Shown: positions 2,789 through 59,830, numbered from the stretch's first letter. The stretch: DNA of 64,000 nt from Alphaproteobacteria bacterium (GCA_965261735.1 OZ253470.1:4352001-4416000); one strand, 5' to 3'. The notes: generated by a model from the letters alone, not told the origin. Made by a program: numbers and translations.

Positions 2789-4720
2789 GCCGGGTAGGAG
2801 GGGTCGTTGCCGAGCCCCTCCCCCCACAGACCCGAGCGTGCGCGATTGACGCACTCGGTTCCTCACCTGACAGGTTCGCTCAGGGTGCTTTGCCATGAGC
2901 GCGTGATCGTTGCTGGCGGCAGGGGATATTTCTTGAGGAGGTCTGCCATCCGGTCCCAGTTCAAACGCCTGAGGCGGCTGCGGCGTGCGAGCCACTTTCG
3001 CCAGATGCGGACGACCTGGTAGCGGAACCAACCGAGACGTTTGCCGTTCCCCGTCCGACCGTAATATGCGCAGTGGCCCCGGATCACCTTGGCGAGGTGC
3101 TCCCGCTGTGCCTCGATCGGCAGGTGCCGGTATCTCTTGCACCAGTCGTGCACCGATTTGAGCGCGCGGGCGAAGCGGCCTTTCGCCGTTATTTGACGAA
3201 CGACGTCCTTGCCTTTCATCGACCGCCCCCATACGTGGGTGAAGCCGAGGAAGTCGAACGTCGTGGCCGATGCCATCCAGTGGCGCCCGTAAGGGCGCCT
3301 CCGGCGGAAGTCCACATAGCGCGTCTTGGTCTCATGGAGCGTGAGCCCGTATCGACCGAGACGTTTGCCCAGCACGTCAAGCATTCGCTTGCCGCTGTGG
3401 CGGTCTTCGAAGGCAATGACAAAATCATCGGCGAATCTCACCAGCTGGCACCGTCCGTGGAGGCGCGGCTTCGCCACGTTCTCGAACCACTCGTCCAGCA
3501 CATGGTGCAGGTAGACGTTCGAGAGCATCGGCGAGATCACCCCGCCCTGAGGGGTGCCAGCCACCGGCCTATGCAAGGTGTCCTCTTCGAGCACCCCCGC
3601 TTTCAGCCATTTGTCGATCATGCGCCTTGCGACGCCGTCCTTGATCCGCAGGTCGAGGAATGACCGGAGGTGGGAGTGTGTAATCGAGTCGAAGTACTTC
3701 GAGATATCGGCATCGATCACCCACCGCTGGCGCTGCTCGATGATGCCCGTACGCAATGCGCTGAGGGCATCGTGGGCTGACCGTCCGCGCCGGAAGCCGT
3801 ACGAGCACGGCAGAAAGTCCGTCTCGTAAATCGGCTCCAGCAGCATCAGGATCGCCCGCTGCGCCACCTTGTCTTCAAACGTCGGAATGCCGAGAGGGCG
3901 TTTCGTGCCGTCCGCCTTCGGGATGTAGTGCCGTCGCACCGGCGGCGCGCGGTAGTTGCCCGACTTGATCCGGTTCAGGAGGCTTTCGAGATTGGCCTCA
4001 AGGTCCTTTTCGTAGTCGGCAGCCGTCACGCCGTCGATGCCCGTCGCCCCATCCTTGCGCGTCCGTCGGTACGCCTCCGACATCCAGCCGATGTCGATCA
4101 GGTGGTGCAGTGACGTGAACACCCGGTCCGGATGCTCCCTCGCCTGTTCGGCTATCCACTGCTGTTTCGTGTACGTGTTGGTGGAACTCAGCGTTTCCTC
4201 CAGCGTTTCCCATCAGTGGGTCTGTGCAAGTGACGCCCCGCTTCCCTCCGGCGGGTCCCGATGGCCACGGTTCCCCGCCTTCAGCGGTACTATCAGAGCG
4301 CTACGACTTCCTGCTCCCGCATGTCCTTCGGCTTATTGATTTCGCCAGCCGGCTCCGCAGGCGTCTGCCGGGATTCGTGTTCGCCGGAGCGCTCCCGCCG
4401 CCATGCAGACCTGACGACGGGCCGGGGTCTGGATTGTTCACGCTGGCCGTCCCCCTTCCAGCGATCTTGCCCACGGGCAAGAGCAGGATCTCCCAGGTTC
4501 CCTGGCGGTCCATCCCGTGACTTTGCGCCGGTCCACGACCCCGGACGACCCGTTGCGCCTCGCCAATAGCGGCGCTTCCGGTGCTGCCCCCACAAGATTA
4601 ACAATGAAGGCGTCATCATTTGACGATTTCGAGGCTGCGCGACGCTTCGTCACCTGCTGTCTACGCTTCACGACGGGCGTTGCCGCACGCCATGCAAGAC
4701 TCGCTTCCGGCTGGCGGGGG
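2789..4720 (-). mobile_element. Group II intron, 5' end apparently deleted
   Basis: After the RT stop, domain V GAGGAACCGAGTGCGTCAATCGCGCACGCTCGGGTCTGT and domain VI ending CCTACCCGGC; ~500 nt structured leader breaks into helicase sequence at ~4720 with no 5' splice consensus at the junction. Confidence 0.85.
2863..4203 (-). CDS. ltrA: Group II intron reverse transcriptase/maturase, no endonuclease domain
   Basis: RPLGIPTFED, GTPQGGVISP, RFADD, FDFLGF and X domain; frame stays open upstream of 4122 to a CTG at 4203 (LEETLSSTNTYTKQQWIAEQARE). Confidence 0.9.
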   Translation of the reverse strand: MEETLSSTNTYTKQQWIAEQAREHPDRVFTSLHHLIDIGWMSEAYRRTRKDGATGIDGVTAADYEKDLEANLESLLNRIKSGNYRAPPVRRHYIPKADGTKRPLGIPTFEDKVAQRAILMLLEPIYETDFLPCSYGFRRGRSAHDALSALRTGIIEQRQRWVIDADISKYFDSITHSHLRSFLDLRIKDGVARRMIDKWLKAGVLEEDTLHRPVAGTPQGGVISPMLSNVYLHHVLDEWFENVAKPRLHGRCQLVRFADDFVIAFEDRHSGKRMLDVLGKRLGRYGLTLHETKTRYVDFRRRRPYGRHWMASATTFDFLGFTHVWGRSMKGKDVVRQITAKGRFARALKSVHDWCKRYRHLPIEAQREHLAKVIRGHCAYYGRTGNGKRLGWFRYQVVRIWRKWLARRSRLRRLNWDRMADLLKKYPLPPATITRSWQSTLSEPVR

Positions 4721-16701: not shown

Positions 16702-18055
16702 GGTGTGGGCAGGTCGGAGGACGAGTAAGGGCAAACGGTCGACCGAGACGGGATCGGGAAAACCAGCGGTGGGTCAAGGGGCTTTCAAGCCCGCAATATT
16801 GATCTTGGACCCGGTTCGCGCATCTCCATACGGGCCTGCGGCGTCAAACCAGCCGCATCATGAGGCCGGACAGATGACCGCACCTGACCACATGCCCCGA
16901 GACGTTCAAAGCTTGCCTATCCGGTTTACACCCACACCCACTAGGGCTAGAATGGGCGCAACCCGGATATAGGGGAGCGCGCCATGGATGTTCTCGACCG
17001 CGCCGATCTCCCATTCCCGCATTCGCTACCCGAGTTCCAGCGACTTTTCCCCGATGATGCGGCCTGCGCCGCCTACCTGGAGAAAGCCCGCTGGGGAGAC
17101 GGCTTTGCCTGCCCGCACTGCGGCACGGCGGGAGAGCCGTTCCACTTTGAAAACCGCCCTGGCGTCCTGCGCTGCCGCAAGTGCCGCCAGAACACCGGGC
17201 TGACGGTGGGAACAGTGATGGAGCGTAGCCACACTCCGCTGAACGTCTGGTTCTGGGCCGCTTATCTGGTCGCCAGTCAGACGCCCGGCATGTCCGCCGT
17301 GCAGTTTCAGCGGCAACTTGGTCTTTCGCGCTACGAGACGGCCTTTCAAATTCTCCACAAGCTCCGCTCGGGCATGGTGCGGCCCAACCAAGACAGGATC
17401 GGTGGACAGCCCAAGAACCATGTTGAGGTGGACGAAACCTGGGTTGGCGGGCGAACGCGTGGGGAAGGCCGTGGTGTTCACCACAAGGTTCCCGTCTCCT
17501 GTGCCATCGAGGTGCGTCATCGAAAGCCGGGCACCAAGCTCGACAACCGGAAAGACGGACGCTATGCCGGACGCGTTCGGCTCGCCGTCGTGCTCGACCG
17601 TAGCGCCGAGTCGCTCTGTGGGTTCGTCGAGAGCACCGTCGCGCCGCGATCGCTGATCGTTACTGACGATTGGAGCGGCTATGCTGGCCTCGGTAAGCGC
17701 GGCTATGAGCACTTCGCTGTTGCCGAGTGTGGTGATCCAGAGGTTGCCGAGCAATACCTGCCGATCATCCATCTGGTTTTCGCCAACCTGAAGACGTGGC
17801 TGATCGGTATCCACCACGGCGTTAGCCACCAGCACCTACAAGCCTACCTCAACGAGTTCACCTTCCGCTTCAACAGGCGGTTCTACCCGTTCAGCGCCTT
17901 CCGCTCATTGCTCGGCATCGCGGGCGACACCTCTGCTCCAACCTATGCCGAGCTTTACTCGGGAGAGTGGTGGCACCCTACATGTAGCGGTCATGGGCGT
18001 TAACCGGATAGGCAAGGTTCAAAGATATGCTTGCATCAACGGAGGCGTCCACAGA
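16702..18055 (+). ncRNA. Orphan IS1111-type (IS110 family) 3' non-coding end, candidate bridge/seek RNA region, interrupted by IS1595
   Basis: GGACCCGGTTCGCGCATCTCCATACGGGCCTGCGGC...GCCGCATCATGAGGCCGGACAGATGACCGCACC...CTTGCATCAACGGAGGCGTCCAC resembles IS1111 right ends; no transposase upstream. Confidence 0.6.
16912..18016 (+). mobile_element. IS1595-family element copy 2, intact (transposase 16984..18003)
   Basis: Same TIRs; 8-bp TSD GTTCAAAG. Confidence 0.95.
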
Positions 18056-18938: not shown

Positions 18939-19700
18939 CTAATTTGCATCTTTGTCGCCGTAAAACACGGACTTGAAAGTACCGAGGTCTCCCGTTCCTA
19001 GCCCGGGCGCGCTAATGTCACCGCCCATGTATCCGGCAACCCCTTCGGCGTTCGCCCCTCCGAACGCGCCTTCTCCAGCGAAGGTTCCGGTGACCGCAAT
19101 TACTGTAGCACCCAACGGAATCTGAATCGAATGCGTTATTGTGGGCTGAAACGTGCCGCCTGTTACTGGAACGCGCTCAGAGGTCAATTCAGAAAGGCCC
19201 AAGTCGTCCAGTCCAATGTCCTCGTAGGTCAGGTCCGCTTCAACGCTGTTGCTTCCAAAGTATGCGGTGATGATCGCGCTGCCGCTTAACGCCTGGAAGT
19301 TGCTCGCGGCCAGGCCGACGAAAGTCAGAGCCGGAGCAGCAGCAGGATCGAGGTCGATGTTACCCGACCACATGCCGGTCCAGGTCGCCGTTCCCATACC
19401 TTCAGGTTGTACCGGCGCACCAGCTACGACGTGAGCGCCGGATGAGTCGTAATATGCTCTCAACAAACCGTTTGCGTCGCTCAAATCGAGACCACCCGGC
19501 ATCGGGAAATTCCATTCCCCGAGTTGGGTCATCATCAACCTTCCGCCGTTGCCGGGCATGGCATCCTGCTCAGGCGCACCCGTCATCTGGTCGCCACTGC
19601 CACTTCCACCGCTGCTGCAAGCCGCAATCAACAGTCCAGTTACCAAAAGCACCAAACTCGTTCGCAGGCCGTTTATTGCCACGCAACCACCGATTTTCAT
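18939..19700 (-). CDS. Putative surface lipoprotein with TbpB-like beta-barrel
   Basis: AGAGGA RBS, lipobox LIAAC, SSGGSGSG linker, GTATWTGMW and GAFGGANAEGVAG strands. Confidence 0.7.
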   Translation of the reverse strand: MKIGGCVAINGLRTSLVLLVTGLLIAACSSGGSGSGDQMTGAPEQDAMPGNGGRLMMTQLGEWNFPMPGGLDLSDANGLLRAYYDSSGAHVVAGAPVQPEGMGTATWTGMWSGNIDLDPAAAPALTFVGLAASNFQALSGSAIITAYFGSNSVEADLTYEDIGLDDLGLSELTSERVPVTGGTFQPTITHSIQIPLGATVIAVTGTFAGEGAFGGANAEGVAGYMGGDISAPGLGTGDLGTFKSVFYGDKDAN

Positions 19701-19853
19701 TCCTCTTGCCTCCTTATCCCAATTTTGAACGCGCCCACCCCGGAGCACGCGCGCAGACGGAACTCGTACTCCCGACCCTATTCACGAACGATAATCATTA
19801 GGCATACGCAGTGCAACACGTCTTCGGTGGCAGAACCCGCCGCTGTGGATCGA

Positions 19854-22425: not shown

Positions 22426-24095
22426 CCCGCATTTCCCAGATAAGCCTATGGATATGAACGTGATTCTGGTATAAGAATCAAAGTGTTATAGGGGGATTTG
22501 GGGTGTTGATATGGCTTACCCGATGGGTGAATCGAAAGATGGAGTTCTGAGGCTGGATTTCGACCGTCGCCTGAAGCTGGAGTTCCACGGCTCCAAAGTC
22601 ACGACCGACGCCGGACTGCTGGCCTATCGCGAACTCGATGATGCCCTCGGCTTGACCCTAATGGTCGGCGATGAACTCGTTGATCCGCGCACGGGCAAGA
22701 ATGGCCAGCACGCGATGAAGGGCTTGTTCCGGCAGTCCGTCTTCGGCCGCCTTGGCGGCTACGAGGACGTGAACGACGCCGACCGCCTGGGTCGTGATCC
22801 GGTGATGCGCCGGATCGTCGGCGGTCGCGCCGTGGCCAAGGCTGCTGCATCGACCAGTCAGATGGGGCGCTTCGAGACCGAGTTCCTTGCCACCGACGAG
22901 AACCTCACCGCCCTTGCTGGTTTGTCAGGCCAATGGATCGACCGCGTGCATGCGCGGCACCCGCCGAGGGTGATCATCCTCGACATGGATTCCAGTGTGA
23001 GCCCAACCCACGGCGATCAGGAGGGCACGGCCTACAACGGGCACTTCGGGTGTTCCTGCTATCATCCGCTGTTTGTGTTCAACCAGTTTGGCGATCTGGA
23101 GCGGTGCGCCTTGCGCCCCGGCAACGTCCATAGCGCCCATGGCTGGCACGACGTTCTGGAACCCGTGGTTGCCCGTTATCGGGATTGGAAGGTGCGGCGC
23201 TACTTCCGAGGCGATGCGGCCTTCGCCTCGCCGGACCTCTATGAGTTCCTGGAAGCCGAGGGTTACAAGTACGCGATCCGTCTCAAGGCCAACGCGGTTC
23301 TTCAAGCAAGCATCGCTCACCTGCTCACGCGTCCCGTCGGTCGCCCGCCCAACCATGTGCGCCGTTTCCATGCCAGCTTCAGCTATCAGGCCGCCTCGTG
23401 GAACCGGAAGCGCCGGGTGGTCGCCAGGGTTGAATGGCATCCCGGGGAACTGGTTCCCCGGGTCGGCTTCATCGTCACCAACCTGACCCGACCCGCCGAA
23501 CGCGTGGTGGCCTTTTACAACCAGCGGGGCACAGCGGAACAGCATATCAAGGAAGGCAAGAATGCCATCCGGTGGACGCGCCTGTCGTGCCAGAAATTCC
23601 GCAACAACGAGGTCCGGCTTCAGCTTCACGCCCTGGCTTACAACCTCGGCAACTTCATGCGGACGCTGGCCTTGCCGAAGGCGGTGGAGCACTGGTCTCT
23701 GACCACGCTCAGGGAGAAGCTGATCAAGATTGGTGCCAAGGTCGTGAGCCACGGCCGGTACGTCACTTTCCAACTGGCGGAGGTTGCGGTGCCGAGGGAG
23801 CTGTTCCGAAAAATCCTCCGCCTCATCGATGGGCTGCGGCCGGCCCTTGTGCCGCCGTGACAACGGCCCATCCAGTGGCAATCCCGGCCGCCCGACAGGA
23901 CAGGTGTGTGCTGCGCAGGTCGAAGTGCGCCCTCACAATGCGGAGTGGTCACCGGGTCGGGCTTCTCATCACCAAATCAGCCCGATCAAGTGCAGACTAC
24001 AGCCTATCATGACGGCTCAGGGCCGGATTCGCGGTCGGATGCCCATTCTGCTATCACTGTCGGCGGCTGGGAGAAGCAATCCGGGGAATCCCGGC
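22426..24095 (+). mobile_element. IS1380-family element, apparently intact
   Basis: Ends CCCGCATTTCCC and GGGAATCCCGG (approximate) around a full-length transposase. Confidence 0.9.
22511..23860 (+). CDS. IS1380 transposase
   Basis: 449-aa uninterrupted ORF with LDMDS, RGDAAF and AEQHIKEGK. Confidence 0.95.
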   Translation: MAYPMGESKDGVLRLDFDRRLKLEFHGSKVTTDAGLLAYRELDDALGLTLMVGDELVDPRTGKNGQHAMKGLFRQSVFGRLGGYEDVNDADRLGRDPVMRRIVGGRAVAKAAASTSQMGRFETEFLATDENLTALAGLSGQWIDRVHARHPPRVIILDMDSSVSPTHGDQEGTAYNGHFGCSCYHPLFVFNQFGDLERCALRPGNVHSAHGWHDVLEPVVARYRDWKVRRYFRGDAAFASPDLYEFLEAEGYKYAIRLKANAVLQASIAHLLTRPVGRPPNHVRRFHASFSYQAASWNRKRRVVARVEWHPGELVPRVGFIVTNLTRPAERVVAFYNQRGTAEQHIKEGKNAIRWTRLSCQKFRNNEVRLQLHALAYNLGNFMRTLALPKAVEHWSLTTLREKLIKIGAKVVSHGRYVTFQLAEVAVPRELFRKILRLIDGLRPALVPP

Positions 24096-26740: not shown

Positions 26741-27706
26741 GAGTTGTTGGAGCCTCTGGTAGCTGTGGGTAGGCGGCTTGCCGTAGCGACCGCCGAGAGT
26801 CTGGCGTAGGCAAGCCGGCTATCCACAGCGGAGGCCATCGCGGTTCCGGTTTAGGATCACCTTCCAGCGGCGCGGGATCACCTCCAGCGTCTCGGTCACG
26901 TCCTCGCCGATCTTCGACAGCTTCTCCGATCCGCAGCACGCGCAGGCAGTCGGCGCCGGCACCACCACGCGCTCGCGCGGCAGGTGCGCCGGGAACGGCT
27001 TGCGGGCCAGCTTGCGGCGCGCAAACCCCCTGACCTGCGTGGTCCCCGCCGCCGCCAGCTCGTCCTCGGTCGCGCTCGCCTTAAGCTCGTCGAGCTGCAG
27101 CTCCAGCTGGTCGAGAAGCCGCTGCTTGCGCTCCGAGCGCCAGCCGTACATCTCGCGCCTGAGCTTCACGATCGTCAGCTTCAGGAAGGCGATCTCCGCC
27201 TCGGCGCCGGACACCTTCGCCTCGGCGTTAGCAGCCCGCGCCTCGGCCGCCGCGAGGGCCGTCTTCAGGGCTGAGATGTTGGACCCGCCGGTCATCGGCG
27301 GGATCGAATCACATCGACCGATTCGGCGCTACAACATTCCTCCCGCCCGCGTCGTTCCCCCGCCGATCAGCCCGCGCGAGACGGTCGCCAGGTCCGAACC
27401 GGGTTCCGCCAATCGATCCCCTCGAGCAGGTAGCCCAGCTGCGCCGCGCTGATCGACACCGCACCCCCCGGCGTCGTCGGCCACTGGAACCGGCCGCGCT
27501 CAAGCCGCTTGGCGTAGAGCGAGATCCCCACCCCGTCATGCCACAGGCATTTTACGAGGTCGCCTCGACGACCGCGGAAGATATACAAATCCCCCGCATG
27601 CGGGTCGCGCCTGAGATCCTCCTGGGTAACTACCCAGGTCTGATTGGCCCGAGCGTTTGTATGTGAGGGATCGTGGGGGTCCGGGCTGGTAGCGGTGCCG
27701 GTGTTC

Positions 27707-29245
27707 TCAGAGGCGCAGTTGGGGGATTAGTTGCATCGGATCGGGATGCACCAGGGTCTGGAGGACGTTCCAGCCTTGCTTTCGGGCGGTGGCGATGACG
27801 GCACGCATTCTGGCGAAGTTGCAGGCACCCCTCTCGGAGCGGAAGCCACCGGAGATCTTCTGGCGCAGCTTGGCCATTCGGAGGTCACGTTCGGCCTCAT
27901 TGTTCGTAAACGGCGTGCGCGGGTCGGTGAGGAATCGCAGGCATCCCTCCTTGTGCTTGCGGAGGCGGAGCGCGAGGTTATGACCGATGCGGCGTTTCTT
28001 TCGTCCGCGCTTGCCGGTCCGGAGCGGCGGCTGCGCCTCGTGGAAGGCGATGGCGTGGTCGAGGATGCGGGCCCAGGCCCGCGAGATCCGGGCCACCAGG
28101 GAGGCGGGCGCGTCGCGGCCGTTCTCACGGGAGAAGCGGGTAGCCCTGTGTGCGCGCTCAAGGAGGCGGTGCATGCTCTTTGCCCAGTCTTCCTTCTCGA
28201 TGTCGATCAGGGCCTGGAGTTCGCGCAGGTGATGGGCGTTGCAGGCGCCGTGGCGCACGCCCTTGAGGGTGAAGTAGGCGGCGTAATCGTCATGGATGAG
28301 GATGCCTTCGAGGTCCTTTTCGACATCGCCGCGTCCCGCGCCGATGCGCAGGACGGTCAGGAATGGGGTGCACAGCACGTGGAGCCAGCGGGTACGGGCG
28401 GCGATCCGCAGGCCGGTTTCGTCGAGGTGCTTGACCGGGACCGCTGTGCGGATCACGTCTGCGACATGGGCGAGGAAGGGCTCGAAGCGCCTGGCGGTTC
28501 GCCGGCCCATGGCGGTGATCGTGGCTGTGGAGATGGACACTGCGAAGAGGTCGCTCATGAGTTCGGCCAAGCGCTTCTCGGGAACGAACTGGGCGTACAG
28601 CAGGTAGCTCACCCAGGCGGTGATGCGTGGCCCGTACTGGACCGGGGCGGTCACGCCGTCCGCGAAGACGGCTCCTGTCACGGTGGCGCAGGCGCCGCAG
28701 AGGCAGCGATGGGCGCGGTGTTCGGTGACCTCCAGGGGGCGTGGCTCGGGCACATCGAAGACCTGTCGACAGACGGGCGCGCGGTGACGGTCGGCGTCCG
28801 ACAGCGGTGCGCCGCAGCCCGAACAGGCGGAGGGGTCATGATCCACAACATGGTCCGGGCTCTCGGTCCGCGCCAGCGTCGTTCCCTTGTGGCCCGGCTG
28901 GCCGCCGCTTGGCCTGCCGGACTTGCCGCGCTGGCTTCGGGTGCGCCTCTGGGTTCCGCTCTTCTTGCGCAGGCCGTCGCTGGCGGGCGGCTTGCTGCTG
29001 GTGGTGCTGTCAAGCGCCGCGCTCCGCTCGAGCTCGGCGATGCGGTCCCGCAGGGTCGCGTTCTCCCGCTCGAGCGCGGCATTCTCCCGGACGAGCGCCG
29101 TGGCCAGGCGCAACAGCCCCTGGCCCCATTCCCCGAAGGCCTTGACGACTGTGGTTGCGAAGGATGAGGGGTCAAGAAGATCTTGCAGGCACGCGAAGGC
29201 CTCGTCATGGGCGGCGAGGTCCTCGTGCCAGCGCGACAGCGTCAC
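27707..29245 (-). CDS. IS66-family transposase (TnpC-like)
   Basis: SSKPPASDG, GGQPGHKG, CxxC ribbons, HLDETG, CNAHHLREL, TNNEAERDLR. Confidence 0.95.
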   Translation of the reverse strand: MTLSRWHEDLAAHDEAFACLQDLLDPSSFATTVVKAFGEWGQGLLRLATALVRENAALERENATLRDRIAELERSAALDSTTSSKPPASDGLRKKSGTQRRTRSQRGKSGRPSGGQPGHKGTTLARTESPDHVVDHDPSACSGCGAPLSDADRHRAPVCRQVFDVPEPRPLEVTEHRAHRCLCGACATVTGAVFADGVTAPVQYGPRITAWVSYLLYAQFVPEKRLAELMSDLFAVSISTATITAMGRRTARRFEPFLAHVADVIRTAVPVKHLDETGLRIAARTRWLHVLCTPFLTVLRIGAGRGDVEKDLEGILIHDDYAAYFTLKGVRHGACNAHHLRELQALIDIEKEDWAKSMHRLLERAHRATRFSRENGRDAPASLVARISRAWARILDHAIAFHEAQPPLRTGKRGRKKRRIGHNLALRLRKHKEGCLRFLTDPRTPFTNNEAERDLRMAKLRQKISGGFRSERGACNFARMRAVIATARKQGWNVLQTLVHPDPMQLIPQLRL

Positions 29246-29907
29246 GGGTCCTCGGCATCGACGGCCATCATGGCGGCCAGCACCGCGAGGCGTTCGCCCG
29301 CCGGCAAGGCCTTGTAACGCCGGCCCCAGTTGGCCGCCTTACGCTTGATGCGCTGGCGGTCGGTGAAGTTCCGGCCTGCGTAGCTCGCCCAATGCACCCG
29401 GTCGGGCGCGAAGTTGAACCACACGACCTCGGTCCGCACCTGGGCCTGGGTCGTCACCTGCAGCGCCAGACTGCGCCAGCCCGCCAGCATCTCGTCATAG
29501 AGCGCCGAGGGATGGCCCGAGACCATCACCTGGCAGGGCAGATCCTTGAGCAGGTCCAGGAGCGCGACATGGTCGACCTCCTCGAAGTCGAAGCGATAGC
29601 GCCGTGCCGAACGGCGGGTCGCGTGCAGATAGGGGGGATCGCTGTAGACCAGCTCCGGGCCCAGAAACGGGAACGAGGCCAAAAAGGCATGGGCACAGCC
29701 ATGCACCAACTCGACCGGGTAGTCACAGGCAAAGGCCTCGAGCGCCTGCGCATCGCGGTCGATGCCGATCGAGCGCACGCCCGTTGGCTTGCGCTTCATC
29801 AGCGCACCGCCCCCCAGGTGGCTCTCGATGTAAACGCTGTGCGGCGGCATCAGCGCAATCAGCGCCTGGCACAGACCGCTCGTCGCCTTCGACCCGAAAT
29901 ATCCCAC
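29242..29907 (-). CDS. Short Dam/D12-class N6-adenine DNA methyltransferase
   Basis: YFGSK, YIESHLGGGA (motif I variant), LVYSDPPY (motif IV); 221 aa; GTGA overlap with the transposase. Confidence 0.85.
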   Translation of the reverse strand: MGYFGSKATSGLCQALIALMPPHSVYIESHLGGGALMKRKPTGVRSIGIDRDAQALEAFACDYPVELVHGCAHAFLASFPFLGPELVYSDPPYLHATRRSARRYRFDFEEVDHVALLDLLKDLPCQVMVSGHPSALYDEMLAGWRSLALQVTTQAQVRTEVVWFNFAPDRVHWASYAGRNFTDRQRIKRKAANWGRRYKALPAGERLAVLAAMMAVDAEDP

Positions 29908-30716
29908 GCGCCGCTCCCGTCACACGAGAGCGCAACCCATAGACGCCCGATTCTATGGAGTCAAGAGACGATCAACGACGCGGCGGCGGAAACCCGGCCC
30001 CGGCGACCACCTACATCATCCTCTCGCGGTCAGGAGCGGGGTACCTGGGTAGTTACCCTCCTGGACCTGAAGCGCCAGGGTGTTCATGCCGCGCCGCATG
30101 TCGGTCACGCCACTCGCCAGCCAGACACGAGCACCTCCCGGAACCGGGATCATCGGCGTGCCAGAACCGCCAGCACCCGCGCCAGCGCCGAACCGTCCAC
30201 CTCCCGGTCGACGATCACCCGCGAGCCATCGGCCAGCGCGATCTCCATCCGTCCCGCCGCCGGCGCATCCCCCGGGGCAGCATCCAACGGTGGCGGCTCC
30301 ACAACCACCGGCACCAAGCCGCCGGCCCCGCCAGCCTGCTCGCGAAACCGGCGCCGCCAGTTGAACACCAGGTCGGCGTTCACGTCGTTGCGCCGCGCCA
30401 CAACCGACACAGAAACCCCGGGCTGGTAGCTCTACGCTACGATCCGGCGCTTCTCGGCATCGCTCCAGCGACGACGAAGGGCACCCGGGCCTTCCCGCCC
30501 GGACCCCGGATTCTCCACTGCTTCCGACATTTGCGATCGTGTCCACTTAGACCTTGGTGGACACCAAACAGGTGTCCACTCCCGATCGCACAACCTCGCC
30601 TGATTACACTAATCCGAGAAGGCGGCCCACTCCGGAGGCTTACCCGGAAGCAAACGCATGTCACAAATCGTGGAGCCGCACTTCCTAATGGTCGGCGCCG
30701 CCTGACCATCAATTGT

Positions 30717-32294: not shown

Positions 32295-33416
32295 CTACCT
32301 CTCCGCCGCGTCGAGGTCCTGATCTATACTGTCTCCGATGCGGGCGGCGGATGCCTTGACGGTGTCGCGGGCAAGATGGGCGTATCGAGCGGTCGTCTGG
32401 ACCTGCGTGTGTCCCAGCAATTTGCCGATCATGGGCAAGCCCTCGCCGAGCGCCAACGCGCGGGAAGCGAACGAATGGCGGAGGTCGTGAATTCTCACCC
32501 CGTCGAGTCCGGCGCGGGCTCGGATACGCCGCCAGGGGTGCTGCAGGTCGGTGAGGTGCCAGCCCGGCTTGCGGCCCGCGATCACCCATGGATTGTCCTC
32601 GTCGCGGGGCAGGGAGGTCAGCAACCGTACGGCGGAGGGCGCAAGCGGGACCGCCCGCCCGCCGGTTTTGGTGTCGGGCAACCTCAGCTCGCCCGCGTCG
32701 AGATCGACATGGTCCCAGCGCAGCTTCTGGATCTCCGACAGCCGGCAGCCGGTCAGCATCAGGAGACGGATTGCGGCTACCGCCGAGCGGGTCTCCGATC
32801 CGTCCCCCAGAATCTCGTCGAGAACCTGGCCAAGCCGGGTGAACTCCTCCGCGCTCAGGAATCGTTCGCGCTTCTCCTCCTTGTAGCGCTTGACGTGCAG
32901 ACAGGGGTTTGAGCCGTCCGGACGCAGACCCCACAACTCGGCCAAGTTGAACATTTTTGAAAGCACCCCGAGGGTCCGGTTGGCCTGATAGGGAGTCTCC
33001 CGCATGCCATGGTGCAGTTCGGCGATGTCGCTCCGCTGAATCTCCGTCACCTTGCGGGTTCCGATCCTGGGGTCGATGAAGAACTTCACCGAACGCTGGT
33101 ACTCGTAGGCCGTGCTCGGCTTGCAATGGACTGGGACATACTCTTCCAGAAAGCGTTTGCCCAGAACCTTCATCGTTGCCGCCTTGCGGCCCTTGTCCCG
33201 AAGGGCGGCCGGATCTTTACCGCCCTTGGCCTCCGAGATCAGCGCCATGGCCCGCCGCCGTGCGGTCTCCGGCGTCACTGCCCCATGACGACCCAGGGTC
33301 ATGCGGCGCAGCCGACCGTTGGCGCGGAACTGGACCACGTAATACTTGCGTCCCGAGGCGCGGACACGCAGGCCGAAACCGGCGAGATCGCCGTCCCAGT
33401 AGAACTTGTCCGATCC
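32295..33416 (-). pseudogene. Tyrosine integrase (arm-binding type), native N-terminus lost
   Basis: WDGDLAGFGLRV arm domain; TGCRLSE, DTKTG, HDLRH, LLGH and ARYAH catalytic residues intact. Confidence 0.9.
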
Positions 33417-33990
33417 GTCGGGGCGTGCTCGCCTGATGTGTGCGACTTCGCTTGCAAGCTGCGCCTTCAGCGTGAGCTTGCCGCTCTCCGGCATGGGGCC
33501 GAGATAGAGGGTCTTCAGGCGCTTGCCCTCGGCGTCGTGGAAGGAGACCGTGCCGCAGGCAGCCTCGCGCCAGGAGGCCTTGGCGCGACCGTCCTCGCCG
33601 GGTCTCAGCGGCACCATGACGCCGTCGAGGGAGACCGAGGCGGTGGTCGCGTCCTGCGGTATGCCCTCGGCCTCACGGATGCTGCCCAGCGTCTCCGGGC
33701 CGAGGCTCTCCCAGCATTCGTGCATGCTCAGGGTCAGGCGCTGCAGGGTGCTCACCGACGGCGTCATGGCGCCGGTCTTCGCAAAGAACGCCGCCGCTTC
33801 CCGGGCCGTGCAGTGACCCATCATCAGCAGACCGAGCTCGGCCGCCGGCCGCGTCAGGTAATCGTCGACGAGGCCCTGGCTCTCGTCGACTGGCACCGGC
33901 GATGCCCCGCTCGCGCCGCTGCGGTAACGCGCTCGCCGGTAGGTCACCGGACCGAGCGAGGTCATGATCGTCTTCGCCGTCACCGCGACC
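33417..33990 (-). pseudogene. ISKra4/ISLre2-like transposase fragment fused in frame to the integrase
   Basis: TSLGPVTYRRARY, SLDGVMVPL, WREAACGTV. Confidence 0.7.
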
Positions 33991-37080: not shown

Positions 37081-39336
37081 CTCGCCTATCCGGTTTACAC
37101 CCACACCCACTAGGGCTAGTGGATTGATTCCAACGTTTGGAACCCTCTGTTTCGTGCGGCGATGATATGATCGGGGTCGGCTTTCCAGATGAAGGGTTTT
37201 GGGTTTGCGTCATTGTATTCGCGGACAAATCGGTTGATGGCGTCCTGAAGGTCGACGACGGATTGGAAGACGCCGTATTTGAGCCTGCGCCGCGTTAGTT
37301 TGGCGAAGAAGCCCTCGACGGCATTGAGCCACGAGCACGAGGTTGGCGTGAAGTGGAAGGTCCAGCGTGGATGGCGGGCGAGCCAGGCGCGGACCTTGTC
37401 CTTCTTGTGCGCGGCGTAGTTGTCGAGGATGACGTGGACGGCCTTGTCCGTCGGCACCTCGCGCTCGATGCGGTTGAGGAAGCGGATGAACTCCTGATGG
37501 CGGTGGCGCTGCATGTTCTGTGCGATGACCGTACCGTCCAGCACGTTGAGCGCGGCGAACAGCGTCGTCGTGCCATGCCGTTTGTAATCATAGGTCATCG
37601 TACCGGCGCGGCCCTTCTTCATCGGCAAGCCGGGTTGGGTGCGGTCGAGCGCCTGGATCTGTGATTTCTCATCAACCGACAGCACCACGGCATGGGCCGG
37701 CGGATCGACATACAAGCCGACGATATCTGTGAGCTTCTCGGCGAAGGCGGGATCATTGGAGAGCTTGAAGTGCCGCCAGCGGTGCGGGCTGAGGCCATGG
37801 GCCTTCCAGATCGCTTGGACCGTCGACGCCGCGACGCCAGCAACCTTCGCCATCGCGCGCAGCGTCCAGTGGGTCGCCTCGTGCGGCGGCGCTTGCTGGG
37901 TCAGGCGGACGATCTCGGCGACGCGCTCCGGCGGGATCGGCGCTTTGCCAGGCGGACGGGACCTGTCGCGAAGCAAGCCGTTGACACCCTCGTGCATGAA
38001 CCGCTCCTGCCAGCGCCAGACACAGGTCTTGGACTTGCCGGTCTCGGCCATGATCGACGAGTTCCCGAGCCCCTCGTCGCTCTTCAGGATGATCCGCGCC
38101 CGCCAGACATGTTTCTGCGAGCTCTTCGGGTCCGCGACGATAGCTTGCAATCGCTGACGGTCGCCAGACGTGACAGTAAAATAGATGCCGGTGCGCATAG
38201 CACAGACTCGCATGACACCGCACCATACGGAATCTCAAATCGGACTCTTTCGTTCCGATCAATCCACTAGAATGGGCGCAACCCGGATATAGGGGAGCGC
38301 GCCATGGATGTTCTCGACCGCGCCGATCTCCCATTCCCGCATTCGCTACCCGAGTTCCAGCGACTTTTCCCCGATGATGCGGCCTGCGCCGCCTACCTGG
38401 AGAAAGCCCGCTGGGGAGACGGCTTTGCCTGCCCGCACTGCGGCACGGCGGGAGAGCCGTTCCACTTTGAAAACCGCCCTGGCGTCCTGCGCTGCCGCAA
38501 GTGCCGCCAGAACACCGGGCTGACGGTGGGAACAGTGATGGAGCGTAGCCACACTCCGCTGAACGTCTGGTTCTGGGCCGCTTATCTGGTCGCCAGTCAG
38601 ACGCCCGGCATGTCCGCCGTGCAGTTTCAGCGGCAACTTGGTCTTTCGCGCTACGAGACGGCCTTTCAAATTCTCCACAAGCTCCGCTCGGGCATGGTGC
38701 GGCCCAACCAAGATAGGATCGGTGGACAGCCCAAGAACCATGTTGAGGTGGACGAAACCTGGGTTGGCGGGCGAACGCGTGGGGAAGGCCGTGGTGTTCA
38801 CCACAAGGTTCCCGTCTCCTGTGCCATCGAGGTGCGTCATCGAAAGCCGGGCACCAAGCTCGACAACCGGAAAGACGGACGCTATGCCGGACGCGTTCGG
38901 CTCGCCGTCGTGCTCGACCGTAGCGCCGAGTCGCTCTGTGGGTTCGTCGAGAGCACCGTCGCGCCGCGATCGCTGATCGTTACTGACGATTGGAGCGGCT
39001 ATGCTGGCCTCGGGAAGCGCGGCTATGAGCACTTCGCTGTTGCCGAGTGTGGTGATCCAGAGGTTGCCGAGCAATACCTGCCGATCATCCATCTGGTTTT
39101 CGCCAACTTGAAGACGTGGCTGATCGGTATCCACCACGGCGTTAGCCACCAGCACCTACAAGCCTACCTCAACGAGTTCACCTTCCGCTTCAACAGGCGG
39201 TTATACCCGTTCAACGCCTTCCGCTCATTGCTCGGCATCGCGGGCGACACCTCTGCTCCAACCTATGCCGAGCTTTACTCGGGAGAGTGGCGGCACCCTA
39301 CATGTAGCGGTCATCGGCGTTAACCGGATAGGCAAG
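37081..39336 (+). mobile_element. IS1595-family element copy 3 (transposase 38304..39323) with IS630 in its 5' UTR
   Basis: TIRs C(T/C)-variant CTCGCCTATCCGG and CCGGATAGGCAAG; 8-bp TSD CCCGCAAC. Confidence 0.95.
37119..38267 (-). mobile_element. IS630-family element (transposase 37116..38198)
   Basis: TIR GTGGATTGAT; TA duplication in a CTAG target; SVDEKSQIQA, ILDNYAAH, SWLNAVE. Confidence 0.95.
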
Positions 39337-43489: not shown

Positions 43490-45138
43490 GTGTGTGCGAC
43501 CTTTTCGTTTTTGGTTCCCACTAAGGAGAAGGTATTGGAAATTAAAATGTCTTCGGGGGGCTCTGTATTTTTCGTCGGCGCCAATGGAGGGGGGAAGACA
43601 CGATTAGCAGTTCATATCGAACGGCAACTGAAACTCAAGGCTCATAGAATTTCGGCGCACAGGGCACTATCGTTGAACCCCGATGTGGCAAAAATAGGCG
43701 AAAAGAAGGCCTTAATGGGTCTACGTACGGGAAATGCTAGTGAAACCTCTAACTTGCAATACAGAGAAGGTCATCGGTGGAACTCTCAGAGTGCAGTGAC
43801 TTTTCTCAATGACTTTGACTTCCTTATTCAGGCGTTGTTCGCTGAACAGTCTAATACATCGCTCGATGCATATAATCATCATAAGTCCGGCGGGAAAAAA
43901 TTAAAGAGAAAATTTCAACTCACAATGTTTGATACGTTGAACAAAATTTGGCATCGATTATTGCCACATAGATCACTTCAGATTACAGGTGACGATATCC
44001 AAGTGTCGATACCCAGACAAACGGGTGCATATAAAGCATCAGAAATGAGTGATGGTGAGAGAGCAATTTTCTATCTGATCGGTCAGGTATTAGTTGCAGA
44101 AAAAGATTCCATGTTGATTATCGATGAGCCTGAATTGCATGTGCACCGCTCCATAGTGGCGAAACTGTGGGATGAATTGGAGGCCGCCCGATCTGATTGT
44201 GCATTCGTGTTCATTACTCATGATCTTGAATTTGCAGCTACGCGTGCTGGGAAGAAATATATTTTGGACGATTATAGACCAGAACCATATTGGGTTATTA
44301 AGGAGGTGCCCGAAGAATCTGAGTTTAATGAGGAACTTATTACACTGATACTTGGAAGTCGTAGGCCAATTCTATTCGTGGAAGGTGATGCTAATAGTTT
44401 GGATATAGCCATATATCGGTGTTGCTATCCCGACTGGACGGTCATACCCCGCGGATCTTGTGCGGACGTAATCCATTCGACTGTCACTATGCGGAGCAAT
44501 GCCTCTTTATCACGGGTGAAGTGTTGTGGAATTGTGGACGCCGACAACTATGACCAAGGGGATAGGGACTACTTAGGTAAGTGCGGTGTCGCAATTCTGC
44601 CAGTGTCGGAGATTGAAAACATTGTGTTGCTCCCAGACGTTGCCCGAGAAATTCTACAATTGGAAGGATATATAGACAAAGAGATTGACAAATCCTTGAA
44701 TATGTTGATCGACGCGGTTTTGAAGAGAGTCAATTCATCAGGAGAAATGGAGAAATTTCGAGTTCGTTATTGCAGGAGACGTATCGATCGAGAATTGAAG
44801 AATAGTGATTTTCAGAAGGCAGCCACCGTTAGCGAGCTTAGAAGGCATATTAAGTCACGAACGGAAACCCTGGATGTACAAGCAATTGCGGATCAGATCA
44901 CAAAGAAATTGCAAACTGCTATAATTGAACGAGATTTGCGAGGAATATTGGCCTATTATGATGATAAGGGTTTTTTTTGGCAATAGCTGCTTCTCATATG
45001 AGAAATTGTCGTAAGGTCGAGTTTATCGAAAGGCTAACCCGAATTTTGCGAAACGGCACCGTTAATCGCTTATCTCGTGCAATCAAGTCGGAGCTGCCAA
45101 CAATACCACCGGTAAATGAAGTGGCAAGTGGCACGTGA
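43490..45138 (+). CDS. ABC/AAA ATPase fused to a TOPRIM-like (DUF4435-type) domain; frameshift in a T8 run
   Basis: GANGGGKT, MSDGER, IIDEPELH, ITHD; FVEGD and GIVDAD; removing one T at 44971..44978 extends the ORF from 44986 to TGA 45138; AT-rich. Confidence 0.8.
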
Positions 45139-47107: not shown

Positions 47108-47517
47108 CCGGCGTGGCGCCGCTTGCGGACCAAATCGAGGCGCTTATGCCCCTTCGTCTCGAAGGGCTTCGAGAGGTTTGGCGCAACCGCTATGGTGCCC
47201 CGCCGAAGCTGCGCTCGGCCGAGCTGTTGCGTCATTGTCTGGCCTGGCGGTTGCAGGCAGAGGCTCTCGGCGGTCTCGATCGTGACACACGGCGCCAGCT
47301 CAAGCGCCGCCAGCGGGTCCAGGCAGAAGGTCTTGAGCTCGGGATCGGGACCACGCTGCGGCGTGATTGGCGAGGGCGGATCGTCCAGGTCACGGTCGAA
47401 GAAGAGGGGTTTCGCCATAAGGGCCAACTCTTCAAGAGCCTCTCCGCCGCCGCGACCGCGATCGCCGGCACGCGCTGGAATGGCCCGCGTTTCTTCGGTC
47501 TTCGATCCGCTAAATGA
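47104..47517 (+). CDS. DUF2924-family protein
   Basis: LAWRLQ...GGL, GTTLRRDW, SLSAAATAIAGTRWNGPRFFGLR. Confidence 0.9.
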   Translation: MTGVAPLADQIEALMPLRLEGLREVWRNRYGAPPKLRSAELLRHCLAWRLQAEALGGLDRDTRRQLKRRQRVQAEGLELGIGTTLRRDWRGRIVQVTVEEEGFRHKGQLFKSLSAAATAIAGTRWNGPRFFGLRSAK

Positions 47518-49102
47518 GCCAACCCCGTCTCCACTCGCCCTCTATACGAGGAAGAGCAGCGAGGAAGGCCTTGAGCAGGCGTTCAACTCCCTCGATGCGC
47601 AGCGCGAAGCCTGCGCGGCGTATGTGAAGAGCCAGGCCGGCGAAGGTTGGAGAGCGGTCCCGACCCGCTACGACGATGGCGGCTTCTCCGGCGCATCCAT
47701 GGAGCGGCCGGCGCTCAAGCGGCTTCTCTGCGACATCGAGGCCGGCAAGGTCGACGTCATCGTCGTCTACAAGATTGACCGCCTGACCCGGTCCTTGGCC
47801 GACTTCGCACGCATGATCGAGATCTTCGATCGCCGTCGGGTCAGCTTCGTCAGCGTCACCCAGGCCTTCAACACCACGACCAGCATGGGCCGCCTGACAC
47901 TGAACGTGCTGTTGTCCTTCGCCCAGTTCGAGCGCGAGGTGACGGGCGAGCGCATCCGCGACAAGATCGCGGCCTCCAAGGCCAAGGGCATGTGGATGGG
48001 CGGCATTGTGCCGCTTGGCTACGAGCCGCCTGAGAATGACGCGCGCGCCCTGGCGGTCAACCAGGAAGAAGCCGAGATCGTGCGCACCATCTTCCGAGCC
48101 TATATCGACCTCGGCTCGGTGCACGCGCTGCAGCGATGGCTTGAGGATCGGGGCATCCGTTCGAAGCGGCGCGTGACGCGGGCGGGTCGACTATCCGGCG
48201 GCGGGCCGTTCAGCCGTGGCGCGCTCTTTCAACTGCTGCGCAACAGAGTCTATCGCGGCATGATCGTCCACAAGGGGAGGGCGCATCCCGGCCGGCACCA
48301 GGCCATCATCGATGGCGATCTTTTCGCGGCCGTCCAGGCGCGGCTCGACGCGAACACCCGCCGCCGGGCATCGAATCGCGAGCAAAAGGCGAATGCCCCT
48401 CTGGCCGGGCGCCTCTTCGATGCGGATGGTCGGCCGATGTCGCCGACCTTCTCTTATGGGCGGGGTGGCAGGCTCTATCGCTACTATGTCTCGGCACCGC
48501 TGCAGCAAGGGGCAAGGCGCGATCCATCCGACACAGCCATCCGGCGCATATCCGCCCCACCGCTCGAAGTCGCCCTCGCGACCGTGCTGCGTCGCCTGAT
48601 CGCGGGATGTCCGGACGATCCCATCACGCTTGTTGTCCGCGCCGAGCTCCACGATCAGTCGCTGCACTGCTTGCTGCCGATCGACCGGATCGTCGCGATG
48701 CGCGAGCGCCTCGAGCCCCACGAACGGGTCGAGCCGGATCCGGCCGATGCACGTCTCGCCAGGCTGCATCTTCCCCTTGTCCGGCGTCGCGGCGAGACCT
48801 GGGTTCTTAAGGGCCAAAGTCCGGGACACATGCCGGACCCTGTTCTGGTCAAGGCGCTCCGCTCCGCACACGCCATGCTGCACCACGATGATGCCGGATT
48901 GCCCGTGCTCGTCACAGCGCCGGATACGCCCTATCGCCGCCGCCTCGTCCGCCTGGCCTTTCTGGCGCCGGAGATCCAAAGAGCGATTGTTGAAGGTCGC
49001 CAATCCGCAGGCCTGACACTGGCACAGCTCCTCAAGGGCCCGATGCCGCTCGACTGGCCGCAACAGGCCGTCCGAATCGGCATTGCGGCATCGCTGGAAT
49101 AG
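47514..49102 (+). CDS. Large serine recombinase; 1-nt frameshift at ~47535
   Basis: YTRKSS, DDGGFSG...RPAL, YKIDRLTRS and recombinase domain; the ATGA-coupled start MSQPRLH needs one extra G (TGC) to join ALYTRKS. Confidence 0.88.
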
Positions 49103-59793: not shown

Positions 59794-59830
59794 GGCGCAC
59801 ACGCGCATGTGCCGGTGATCTGCGTCAGCA

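Follow-up and report, generated by a model that had tools for sequence, protein, structure and literature searches.

An Insertion Sequence Carrying a Methylase Gene

The genome of an Alphaproteobacteria bacterium contains, in a 64,000-nucleotide stretch referred to here as the window (GCA_965261735.1 OZ253470.1:4352001-4416000), a mobile element in which a gene for a Dam-related N6-adenine methyltransferase-like protein, hereafter the methylase, precedes a transposase gene. In this report, we describe this element and a cassette, made of the methylase gene and its control region, which it shares with other insertion sequences (ISs). Sequence reading and a repeat search define positions 27626-30056 as a complete IS of 2,431 bp. 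Its 14-bp terminal inverted repeats are perfect, with GTAACTACCCAGGT at the transposase-distal end (27626..27639), where all three full copies of the element end, and the exact reverse complement, matching at 14 of 14 positions, at the methylase-proximal end (30043..30056). An 8-bp target-site duplication, CCTCCTGG, is read on either side (27618..27625 and 30057..30064). Two open reading frames (ORFs), and only these two, fill the element, both on the minus strand: 29907-29242 codes for a protein of 221 residues with a DPPY motif, and 29245-27707 for a transposase of 512 residues. The TGA stop of the first and the GTG start of the second overlap as GTGA (29245-29242), and since the transposase gene follows directly in this manner, the two form one operon in the window element. 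An earlier note on this stretch had reported the perfect repeats, the duplication, the two intact genes and their overlap, all of which we confirmed.

The source genome (5.03 Mb) holds three full copies of the element, 100% identical and flanked by distinct 8-bp duplications, CCTCCTGG, GATAATTC and ACTCGAAC. Three identical copies, each with its own duplication, exclude chance as the origin of the structure, and the segment 27626-30056 is the unit that moved recently, methylase gene included. A fourth genomic copy (L004, G000:C1:2583885-2586259) lacks the last 56 bp, hence the methylase-proximal inverted repeat; the methylase gene in it has kept an open frame, at 99% identity. In the complete element, about 0.75 kb between the left end and the transposase gene are taken up by a promoter, a leader hairpin and the methylase gene, and it is this unit that we call the cassette.

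The Transposase and the ISBst12 Group

The transposase (27707..29245, minus strand, GTG start) belongs to the IS66 family and, within it, to the ISBst12 group. It passes NF033517, the curated NCBIfam model of IS66 transposases, with 285.7 bits (cut-off 180), and matches the Pfam models DDE_Tnp_IS66 (2.1e-41) and DUF6444 (7e-10). The genes tnpA and tnpB are absent from the element, as neither ORF matches TnpB_IS66 or HTH_Tnp_1. The view of the earlier note, which saw an IS66-family element with a methyltransferase as its sole extra gene, is supported and can be narrowed to the ISBst12 group.

The closest methylase-less relatives of the transposase are encoded by single-ORF elements on plasmids, with 38-48% identity, namely those of Bradyrhizobium (48%), Fischerella (46%) and Octadecabacter (45%), and ISGst1 of Geobacillus (38%). 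The transposase tree groups the window lineage with the Bradyrhizobium, Octadecabacter and Fischerella elements, with a support of 100 in the Shimodaira–Hasegawa-like approximate likelihood ratio test (SH-aLRT). Methylase-less relatives have the same kind of ends (GTAACTGCCCAGGT, GTAACTCCCAAG.. and GTAACTATTCA); among three that were checked, two, the Bradyrhizobium element and ISGst1, showed an 8-bp duplication. For ISDge4, another member of the group, a published description gives ends GTGACTACTCAGCA / GTAACTGCTCAGCA, an 8-bp repeat and one ORF (PMC12898284). The window element shows the GTAA-type ends and the 8-bp duplication of the group in all three full copies, and carries a conserved 221-residue gene upstream of the transposase in a group defined by single ORFs. 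It is thus a derivative of the ISBst12 group that departs from it in this feature only, and not a typical member. Since methylase-less ISBst12 elements share the GTAAC tip, the latter belongs to the group and not to the methylase; on the same ground, the GTAACTAC tip, common to elements whose transposases are 21-31% identical, was considered and rejected as a binding or target site of the methylase.

The Methylase Protein

The gene at 29242..29907 (minus strand) was assigned to the Dam-related N6-adenine methyltransferases from motifs X, I and IV and from profile and fold matches of its 221-residue product. Motif X (YFGSK, residues 3-7), motif I (ESHLGGGA, 28-35) and motif IV (DPPY, 90-93) follow one another in the alpha order X, I ... 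IV. Public annotations name the protein either 'DNA (adenine) methylase' or 'hypothetical protein'; it matches PHROG 56 and 1996, labelled 'DNA methyltransferase', and two family relatives carry a precomputed hit to the D12 methyltransferase model PF02086. A profile of 69 family members compared with the PDB retrieved DpnM (1.1e-8) and EcoDam (5.5e-5). The DpnM alignment falls into two pieces, in which residues 2-61 and 80-156 of the window protein correspond to residues 16-73 and 184-265 of DpnM. About 110 DpnM residues (74-183, between motif III and DPPY), which we take to be the target-recognition domain, have no counterpart in the window protein. The very short segment between motif I and DPPY to which the earlier note had drawn attention is accordingly real.

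An AlphaFold2 model, with a predicted local distance difference test score of 90.1, shows a Rossmann core of seven strands, after which come two long helices (181-200 and 203-218). Between the strand at 45-50 and the DPPY strand, the model has only a strand (66-69) and a helix (72-78). The C-terminal two-helix hairpin (181-218) is basic and holds the conserved sequence TDRQRIKRKA. The best Foldseek matches are EcoDam (4rtj), DpnM (2dpm) and Mcbe1 (7m6b), with E values of about 5e-7 and template modelling (TM) scores of 0.52-0.56, low values that are expected because these targets carry an extra domain. DNA recognition could come from the basic loop after DPPY and the C-terminal hairpin. As for the low specificity that the earlier note attributed to the enzyme, the missing insert on which this rested stands; low specificity itself, like the label 'minimal', is an inference, and the conserved basic hairpin, together with a repeat in the promoter described below, leaves room for specific recognition.

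Across the 69 family members, D90 and P91 are invariant, and G32, G34, K7, P92 and Y93 are at least 90% conserved. DPPY and E[ST]HLGGGA are kept in all 43 distinct IS-borne methylases. Pairwise ratios of non-synonymous to synonymous substitution rates (dN/dS, Nei–Gojobori) for the methylase are 0.23 in lineage A and 0.14 in lineage B, two of the element lineages considered below, compared with 0.43 and 0.17 for the transposase. The methylase is under purifying selection, with a constraint at least that of the transposase. Taken together, the conserved motifs, the predicted fold and the selection suggest that the enzyme is a catalytically competent N6-adenine DNA methyltransferase.

Association with Transposases in Other Genomes

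A query of species-representative genomes with the window protein returned 462 loci, and a second one with a 71%-identical relative returned 348; the best 80 of each were kept. A transposase gene follows the methylase at 157 of these 160 loci. Counted within 2.6 kb downstream and on the same strand, one is present at 79/80 and 77/80, the other four loci being an interrupted copy (L049) and three contig ends; wherever a contig extended far enough to tell, each IS-clade methylase among the loci had its transposase. The earlier note had left room for a pairing unique to this copy; it is instead that of a widespread element type. With the window query, a transposase of the window type lies directly downstream at 79 of the 80 loci, and the remaining one (L049) is interrupted. 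The second query revealed, downstream of the methylase, 59 transposases of a type named B (483 residues), four of type C, one of type D, four of type X, five other IS66-like and four IS701-like ones, as well as three contig ends. Types B, C, D and X pass NF033517 at 228-290 bits and are 21-31% identical to the window transposase. Their elements end in GTAACTACTC..., with an 8-bp duplication in the one lineage-B copy whose flanks were read (L155).

The 4-nt overlap of the two genes occurs in 51 of 94 complete pairs, all of them, as far as seen, from the window's lineage, and in the most frequent of the other lineages, about 3-36 nt separate methylase and transposase. The translational coupling proposed in the earlier note fits the GTGA overlap of the window's lineage; it is not a general property of the pairing.

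Confinement of the methylase to ISBst12-type elements was rejected upon finding carriers in two further families. An IS701-like element of 2.76-2.79 kb is present at four loci in two genomes (L137-L139 and L118; e.g. L139:3448-6203), with ends CTCGAGAGTCCC.. / CTCGTGAGTACC.. and a 7-bp duplication in two of the four copies. Its transposase matches Pfam DDE_5 and reaches 158 bits with NF049999, just under the cut-off of 170. This element also holds an opposite-strand ORF of 127 residues (L139:3476-3859) without a Pfam or NCBIfam match. An IS4-like element was found through a search with the cassette-promoter pattern. It measures 2,143 bp, has perfect 17-bp ends, CAGCAGTTCTCATTTTG (e.g. L212:843-2985), and is multi-copy in several Pseudomonadales genome bins; a 9-bp duplication flanks four of the six copies examined (L186, L189, L212, L286, L292 and L301). 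Its transposase of about 400 residues matches DDE_Tnp_1 (2.6e-6) and, weakly, DDE_Tnp_1_assoc. The pattern scan of contigs, with 16 specified bases and about 280 chance matches expected collection-wide, gave, among the matches listed (at least 119), 51 with a methylase downstream, 55 with none despite sufficient room, and 13 without room. Judged by ORF N-termini, the IS4-like type accounts for 19 of the 51 promoter-plus-methylase loci listed, and a further seven could be given no type. The placement of the cassette is common to all three IS families: immediately inside one of the two ends, upstream of the transposase and with its orientation.

These observations bear on the possibility that methylation of the terminal inverted repeats controls end recognition by the transposase. 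Such a role would suit a methylase gene coupled to a transposase, and Dam sites in the ends of IS10, IS50 and IS903 are known to modulate transposase binding. However, one clade of methylases, 65-88% identical, serves three unrelated end sequences, no common end site is evident, and the GTAACT tip is found as well in the methylase-less ISGst1, Bradyrhizobium element and ISDge4; the mechanism would be workable only if the enzyme had almost no sequence preference. We consider it highly improbable. Likewise, regulation of the element's ends, put forward in the earlier note as a specific mechanism, is unlikely given that the three families served have the unrelated ends GTAACTAC.., CTCGAGAGTCC.. 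and CAGCAGTTCTC...

Origin and Exchange of the Cassette

A tree built from 61 family members places every IS-borne methylase on the same side of one branch, which has SH-aLRT 100 and a stem length of 0.78. That side also contains two sequences of unknown context, and the plasmid, phage and remaining relatives stand on the other. When the IS701-like and IS4-like cases are added, a single change of label accounts for 33 IS-borne and 12 other rows. Lineage A methylases, those of the window's lineage, nest among those partnered with type B transposases and are sister to the methylases of the IS4-like element (SH-aLRT 95); monophyly of the B-partnered methylases, a group named after the tree had been seen, is rejected by the approximately unbiased (AU) test (p 4e-9). 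In the transposase tree, B and C stand beside two methylase-less elements (SH-aLRT 90), with D and X far away, and monophyly of the 24 methylase-linked transposases versus 8 others, a group named before the tree was seen, is rejected as well (AU p 0.0014). As for the co-phylogeny that the earlier note proposed to look for, methylases inside the clade do not track transposases.

Pairwise identities lead to the same picture. Within B, methylases are 76% and transposases 71% identical, whereas between A and B the values are 69% and 26%, and between D and B 79% (up to 87%) and 21%. Overall, methylases remain 69-79% identical across at least five ISBst12 lineages whose transposases are 21-31% identical. 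Between lineages, DNA similarity is confined to the methylase ORF and at most about 70 nt upstream. The cassette is a module shared among ISs, present in at least five deeply divergent ISBst12 lineages, in the IS701-like element and in the element of the IS4 superfamily. On the simplest reading, an IS would have acquired a methylase of the plasmid or phage type once, and the cassette would then have passed repeatedly from IS to IS. We have little doubt about the anatomy and evolution of element and cassette.

With regard to function, the methylase might be an ordinary passenger of a transporter IS, either neutral or of benefit to the host, for example through immunity to post-segregational killing by incoming restriction-modification systems, and without a role for the element. 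Transporter ISs with genes unrelated to transposition are an accepted class (PMC3129680, PMC9330008), and the family is otherwise that of a stand-alone orphan methylase of plasmids and phages. Yet neutral hitch-hiking agrees poorly with dN/dS values of 0.14-0.23, that is, with a constraint no weaker than that of the transposase. Furthermore, the methylase has been retained over transposase divergence down to 62% within a lineage, it has been transferred repeatedly to new IS lineages and families, each time to the same place and in the same orientation, and the 160 loci yielded no IS-clade member devoid of a transposase wherever the contig permitted inspection. A mere passenger appears improbable.

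Relatives on Plasmids and Phages, and Host Distribution

The methylase family is large: one library gave 3,790 matches out of 4,383 candidates, and a second one 5,608 cluster representatives at E <= 0.001. Plasmid relatives amount to 191 records, 134 of them conjugative, including upf31.0 of IncP-1, and phage relatives to 75 records, of which the full-length ones belong to P2-like Salmonella phages (SEN4/SEN5); all of these plasmid and phage sequences share less than 60% identity with the window protein. Enterobacterial relatives sit in P2-like, prophage-like contexts. No transposase was found as a fixed neighbour of the plasmid and phage relatives. In one case, a relative on a Sphingobium plasmid next to an IS1380-like transposase was considered as a fourth IS family and rejected, as the same backbone in two other plasmids carries different downstream ISs. 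No functional study of the plasmid or phage relatives was found in the open-access literature.

Another possibility to be weighed is that the protein is no longer a DNA methyltransferase and acts as a DNA-binding or structural accessory of transposition in place of TnpA/TnpB, or on another substrate. It occupies the position of the classical IS66 accessory genes, its recognition insert is missing, and the long stem of 0.78 leading to the IS clade could mark a change of function. On the other hand, the retention of DPPY and of the S-adenosylmethionine motif in 43 of 43 distinct sequences argues for retained catalysis, service to three unrelated transposase families makes a specific protein partner unlikely, and the plasmid and phage relatives do without any transposase. 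A loss of methyltransferase function is thus very improbable.

In terms of hosts, the two queries drew their 160 loci from 15 and 48 genome bins, which bear about 12 phylum names, and a single genome contributes as many as 16 of the copies kept. In the window's own class, three of 401 sampled genomes, the window's genome included, have a match at E <= 1e-70, and none of three genomes of the same family has one at that threshold. The element is patchy and horizontally spread. Methylases 86-99% identical to that of the window were observed in bins assigned to distant phyla, namely Dehalococcoidia (L020, L051 and L053-L055), Longimicrobiales (L050) and Tectimicrobiota (L085); these copies are mostly 89% identical, and L020 alone reaches 99%. 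They represent either very recent transfer across phyla or contigs misplaced in bins.

The Control Region of the Cassette

The cassette promoter (29936..29964, minus strand), of sigma-70 type, comprises a -35 element TTGACT (29964-29959), a 17-nt spacer and a -10 element TATGGG (29941-29936), and is conserved in an alignment of 61 distinct upstream regions from all IS types, which read TTGAC(A), a 17-nt spacer, and TATGCT, TATGGT or TATGGG. Embedded in it is an inverted repeat, also given on the minus strand, with the halves CATAG (29957-29953) and CTATG (29942-29938), the right one overlapping the -10 element. In the 61 regions, TTGAC, the TA of the -10 element and the TAG of the left half are invariant, and the CTA is (near-)invariant. 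Since promoter spacers are normally free to vary, the invariant TAG in the spacer is not explained by promoter function alone. Compensatory variants that keep the symmetry occur in IS copies (CGTAG/CTACG in three sequences and TATAG/CTATA in one). The repeat also accompanies plasmid relatives (L086, L087, L305 and L307): plasmids of Xanthomonas and Shewanella carry two tandem copies, and IncP-1 and Citrobacter plasmids the compensated variant CATCG-N10-CGATG. One copy is present with the Caulobacter relative and with that of a Yersinia prophage. It was not found upstream of three of five further plasmid and phage relatives checked.

Between promoter and methylase gene lies a leader hairpin, with core arms at 29932-29924 and 29920-29912 (minus strand); the GGGAG ribosome-binding site is part of its 3' arm and closely precedes the GTG at 29907. 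ViennaRNA folds 29941-29905 at -17.3 kcal/mol (z -2.8). Folded singly, the 61 distinct leaders have a median minimum free energy of -14.3 kcal/mol and a median z of -2.8 against dinucleotide shuffles, with z < -2 in 40 of 61, and the median fold weakens to -3.4 without the first 12 nt. Base pairing involves about 10 of the 14 nt that precede the start codon. The sequence of the hairpin differs by lineage, and a hairpin is present in every one. RNAalifold on a MAFFT alignment recovered the promoter repeat only, and missed this second hairpin because the alignment is not structure-aware. An Rfam search of 27500-30200 returned no known RNA family and one sub-threshold match (M23 RNA, 22 bits versus 41).

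Two features of IS10 and IS50 are of relevance here: their transposase promoter has a methylation-sensitive site over its -10 element, and their leader folds into a hairpin only when the transcript has started outside the element. By analogy, the strongest rival to the explanation that we favour below is a self-encoded methylation switch, in which the methylase would methylate or bind the inverted repeat in its own promoter. The operon, transposase included, would be off when the sites are fully methylated and briefly open after replication, and repression by the trans-acting enzyme would rise with copy number, a Dam/IS10 logic freed from the host and portable between families. Consistent with such a switch, CATAG-N10-CTATG lies in the spacer and the -10 element and includes the invariant A of the latter, with TAG/CTA (near-)invariant in the 61 leaders and symmetry kept in the variants CGTAG/CTACG and TATAG/CTATA of ISs and CATCG/CGATG of the IncP-1 and Citrobacter plasmids. 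The methylase is moreover the sole protein common to all contexts, each of the three IS families has the cassette, in the same orientation, immediately upstream of the transposase, and a regulatory benefit would be independent of the type of transposase or of its ends. However, the same repeat accompanies plasmid relatives without a transposase, where it shows at most self-control of the methylase, and it may serve such autoregulation only. In addition, the repeat is missing upstream of those three of five further relatives, and half-sites spaced 15 bp centre to centre are unusual for a dimeric binder. On balance, we regard the switch as possible and rather unlikely.

A bolder form of the same idea is that the cassette is a portable epigenetic controller, captured by at least three unrelated IS families to drive their transposases, which would mark its own promoter, including the key -10 adenine, and would serve as a restriction passport in addition. 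If true, transposase would be made only in the hemimethylated window after replication, declining as copies accumulate, and the controller would be a host-independent counterpart of the Dam control of IS10, working in Dam-less bacteria too. This combination strikes us as quite unlikely.

A Proposed Role for the Methylase

The explanation that we favour combines a complete IS with a shared cassette, an active methylase, silencing of read-through transcripts, and a role of the methylase as a passport against restriction. For this statement as a whole, we estimate a probability of roughly 0.5; the anti-restriction role taken by itself is tentative, a little short of even. The methylase would be made whenever the operon is on. 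With a transcription start assumed about 7 nt after the -10 element, the element's own mRNA would lack the 5' arm of the hairpin and be translatable, whereas external read-through transcripts would fold at the leader hairpin and remain silent, as in IS10/IS50. The enzyme would then modify the DNA of the cell harbouring the element, and a plasmid, phage or fragment carrying the element might reach a new host already protected from restriction. An anti-restriction role is generally ascribed to orphan methylases of plasmids and phages. We favour it here because the family otherwise resides on conjugative plasmids and temperate phages, which face restriction, and because the IS lineages also depend on transfer from host to host. 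Shielding of the element from restriction, one of the two uses suggested in the earlier note, is a plausible candidate role.

Several points weigh against this explanation. With regard to the enzyme, a Pfam scan of the 221-residue protein gave no match at E <= 0.01, the D12 methyltransferase model (PF02086) included, and TIGR00571 (dam) matches residues 85-155 only, at 1.1e-5 and 25.3 bits against a cut-off of 114.85. Lacking the usual recognition domain, the enzyme might depend on a partner or act on another substrate, and the open-access literature yielded no activity or specificity data on close relatives. With regard to the benefit, protection from restriction needs a broad or fortunate specificity and enough expression from a normally weak IS promoter; in the window copy, the -10 element TATGGG is poor, and a simple promoter scan made no call. 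Methylation in the donor protects all outgoing DNA, which renders the benefit to the element indirect. A regulatory role would agree no less well with the position upstream of the transposase and the repeat in the promoter, and the transcription start behind the hairpin argument is an assumption. Finally, many host records are metagenome bins, and some phylum assignments may be binning errors.

Insertion Site and Other Contents of the Window

The element lies in tnpB of an older, classical IS66, as the earlier note had recognised. The C-terminal part of this gene (27367..27625, minus strand) matches Pfam TnpB_IS66 at 3.8e-22 (fragment 27367-27588, profile positions 36-99/101), and the N-terminal part (30057..30153, minus strand), taken from the ORF list, continues its frame once the element is removed. 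Excision in script of the element and one copy of the duplication restores a single open TnpB frame of 115 residues. The tnpA gene of the older IS66 (30150-30410) has a weak HTH_Tnp_1 match, and its tnpC is truncated (26819-27295, 158 residues, with LZ_Tnp_IS66 and part of zf-IS66). With tnpA present, tnpB split and tnpC cut, the target is itself a remnant, and the site is one of mobile elements stacked within each other.

Mobile and defence genes abound in the window. ORFs at 2863-4122, 22511-23860, 32295-33983, 37116-38213, 43490-44986, 47123-49102, 53161-54252 and 56374-63135 code for a group II intron-type reverse transcriptase, two DDE_Tnp_1_4 transposases, a tyrosine integrase with an Arm-binding domain, a DDE_3 transposase, an AAA_21 + DUF4435 protein, a large serine recombinase and a type I hsdR-hsdS-hsdM operon. 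Three hsd loci had been announced in the earlier note; among the 15 large ORFs scanned, one hsdR-hsdS-hsdM operon was recovered, at 56374-63135, and a number of three was not borne out. ORFs of equal length recur, with 339 residues at 16984-18003 and 38304-39323, and with 269 residues at 17026-17835, 18939-19748, 38346-39155 and 54804-55613, which suggests further repeated elements in the window.

Comparison with Known Systems

With ISBst12, ISGst1 and ISDge4, the window element shares the transposase model, the GTAACT ends and the 8-bp duplication. The ISBst12 group is defined as single-ORF, whereas the window element adds the 0.75-kb methylase cassette and thereby reaches 2.4 kb. The single-ORF element of Bradyrhizobium, the ends of which (GTAACTGCCCAGGT) differ from those of the window element by one mismatch, has about 1.55 kb between its ends.

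The methylase resembles the alpha-class Dam enzymes of the D12 class (EcoDam, DpnM / M1.DpnII, as well as T4 Dam), which are its best profile and fold matches, by its Rossmann fold and by the order X, I, (II, III), IV with DPPY. It differs from them in three respects: the recognition insert between motifs III and IV is absent, a basic C-terminal two-helix hairpin of about 40 residues is added, and the curated family models (PF02086 and TIGR00571) are failed. A Dam-type enzyme without the usual recognition domain bears on how such proteins choose their sites, and could possibly be of use as a compact methylation tool. Hia5, Hin1523 and Nma1821 are non-specific adenine methyltransferases of Mu-like prophages, proposed to shield the element's DNA against many restriction enzymes (PMC3299994). 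They share with the window methylase the DPPY motif, the relationship to Dam and the status of orphan enzymes encoded by mobile elements. As far as a comparison by description only allows, Hia5 keeps a divergent recognition region at about 80-170 with DPPY near 194 (PMC3299994), unlike the window protein with DPPY at 90.

The orphan methylases of plasmids (IncP-1 upf31.0, and those of Xanthomonas, Acinetobacter and Shewanella) and of the Salmonella phages SEN4/SEN5 belong to the same family over nearly their full length, with 43-55% identity. In PMC4914505, upf31.0 is simply listed as one of the backbone genes. These proteins differ from the window methylase in being encoded outside insertion sequences and in lying outside the IS clade on the tree. 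In comparison with IS10 and IS50, the difference resides in the origin of the enzyme, as their methylase is the host Dam and the window element would carry its own.

The open-access literature searched, with ISfinder, TnCentral and REBASE outside its scope and possibly holding a name for it, yielded no paper on this cassette or on a methylase-bearing IS66/ISBst12 element. Methyltransferase passengers are reportedly listed for an IS1380-family element. The part likely to surprise a specialist is a cassette that crosses IS families together with its own control region. Such a pattern suggests that DNA methylation is useful to transposable elements themselves, be it for crossing restriction barriers at a change of host, or for timing or limiting transposition independently of the host.

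Lastly, the window element resembles the transporter ISs in having, within its inverted repeats, a gene other than the transposase that is moved along with it, as documented by the three copies with separate duplications and likewise in other genomes. The distinction is that one and the same passenger reappears across many lineages and three IS families, together with its promoter and leader and in each case immediately upstream of the transposase, and that it is as constrained as the latter. This constraint and recurrence are the behaviour of an accessory module and not of occasional cargo. ISs are usually viewed as a transposase and its ends, and their passengers as occasional cargo.

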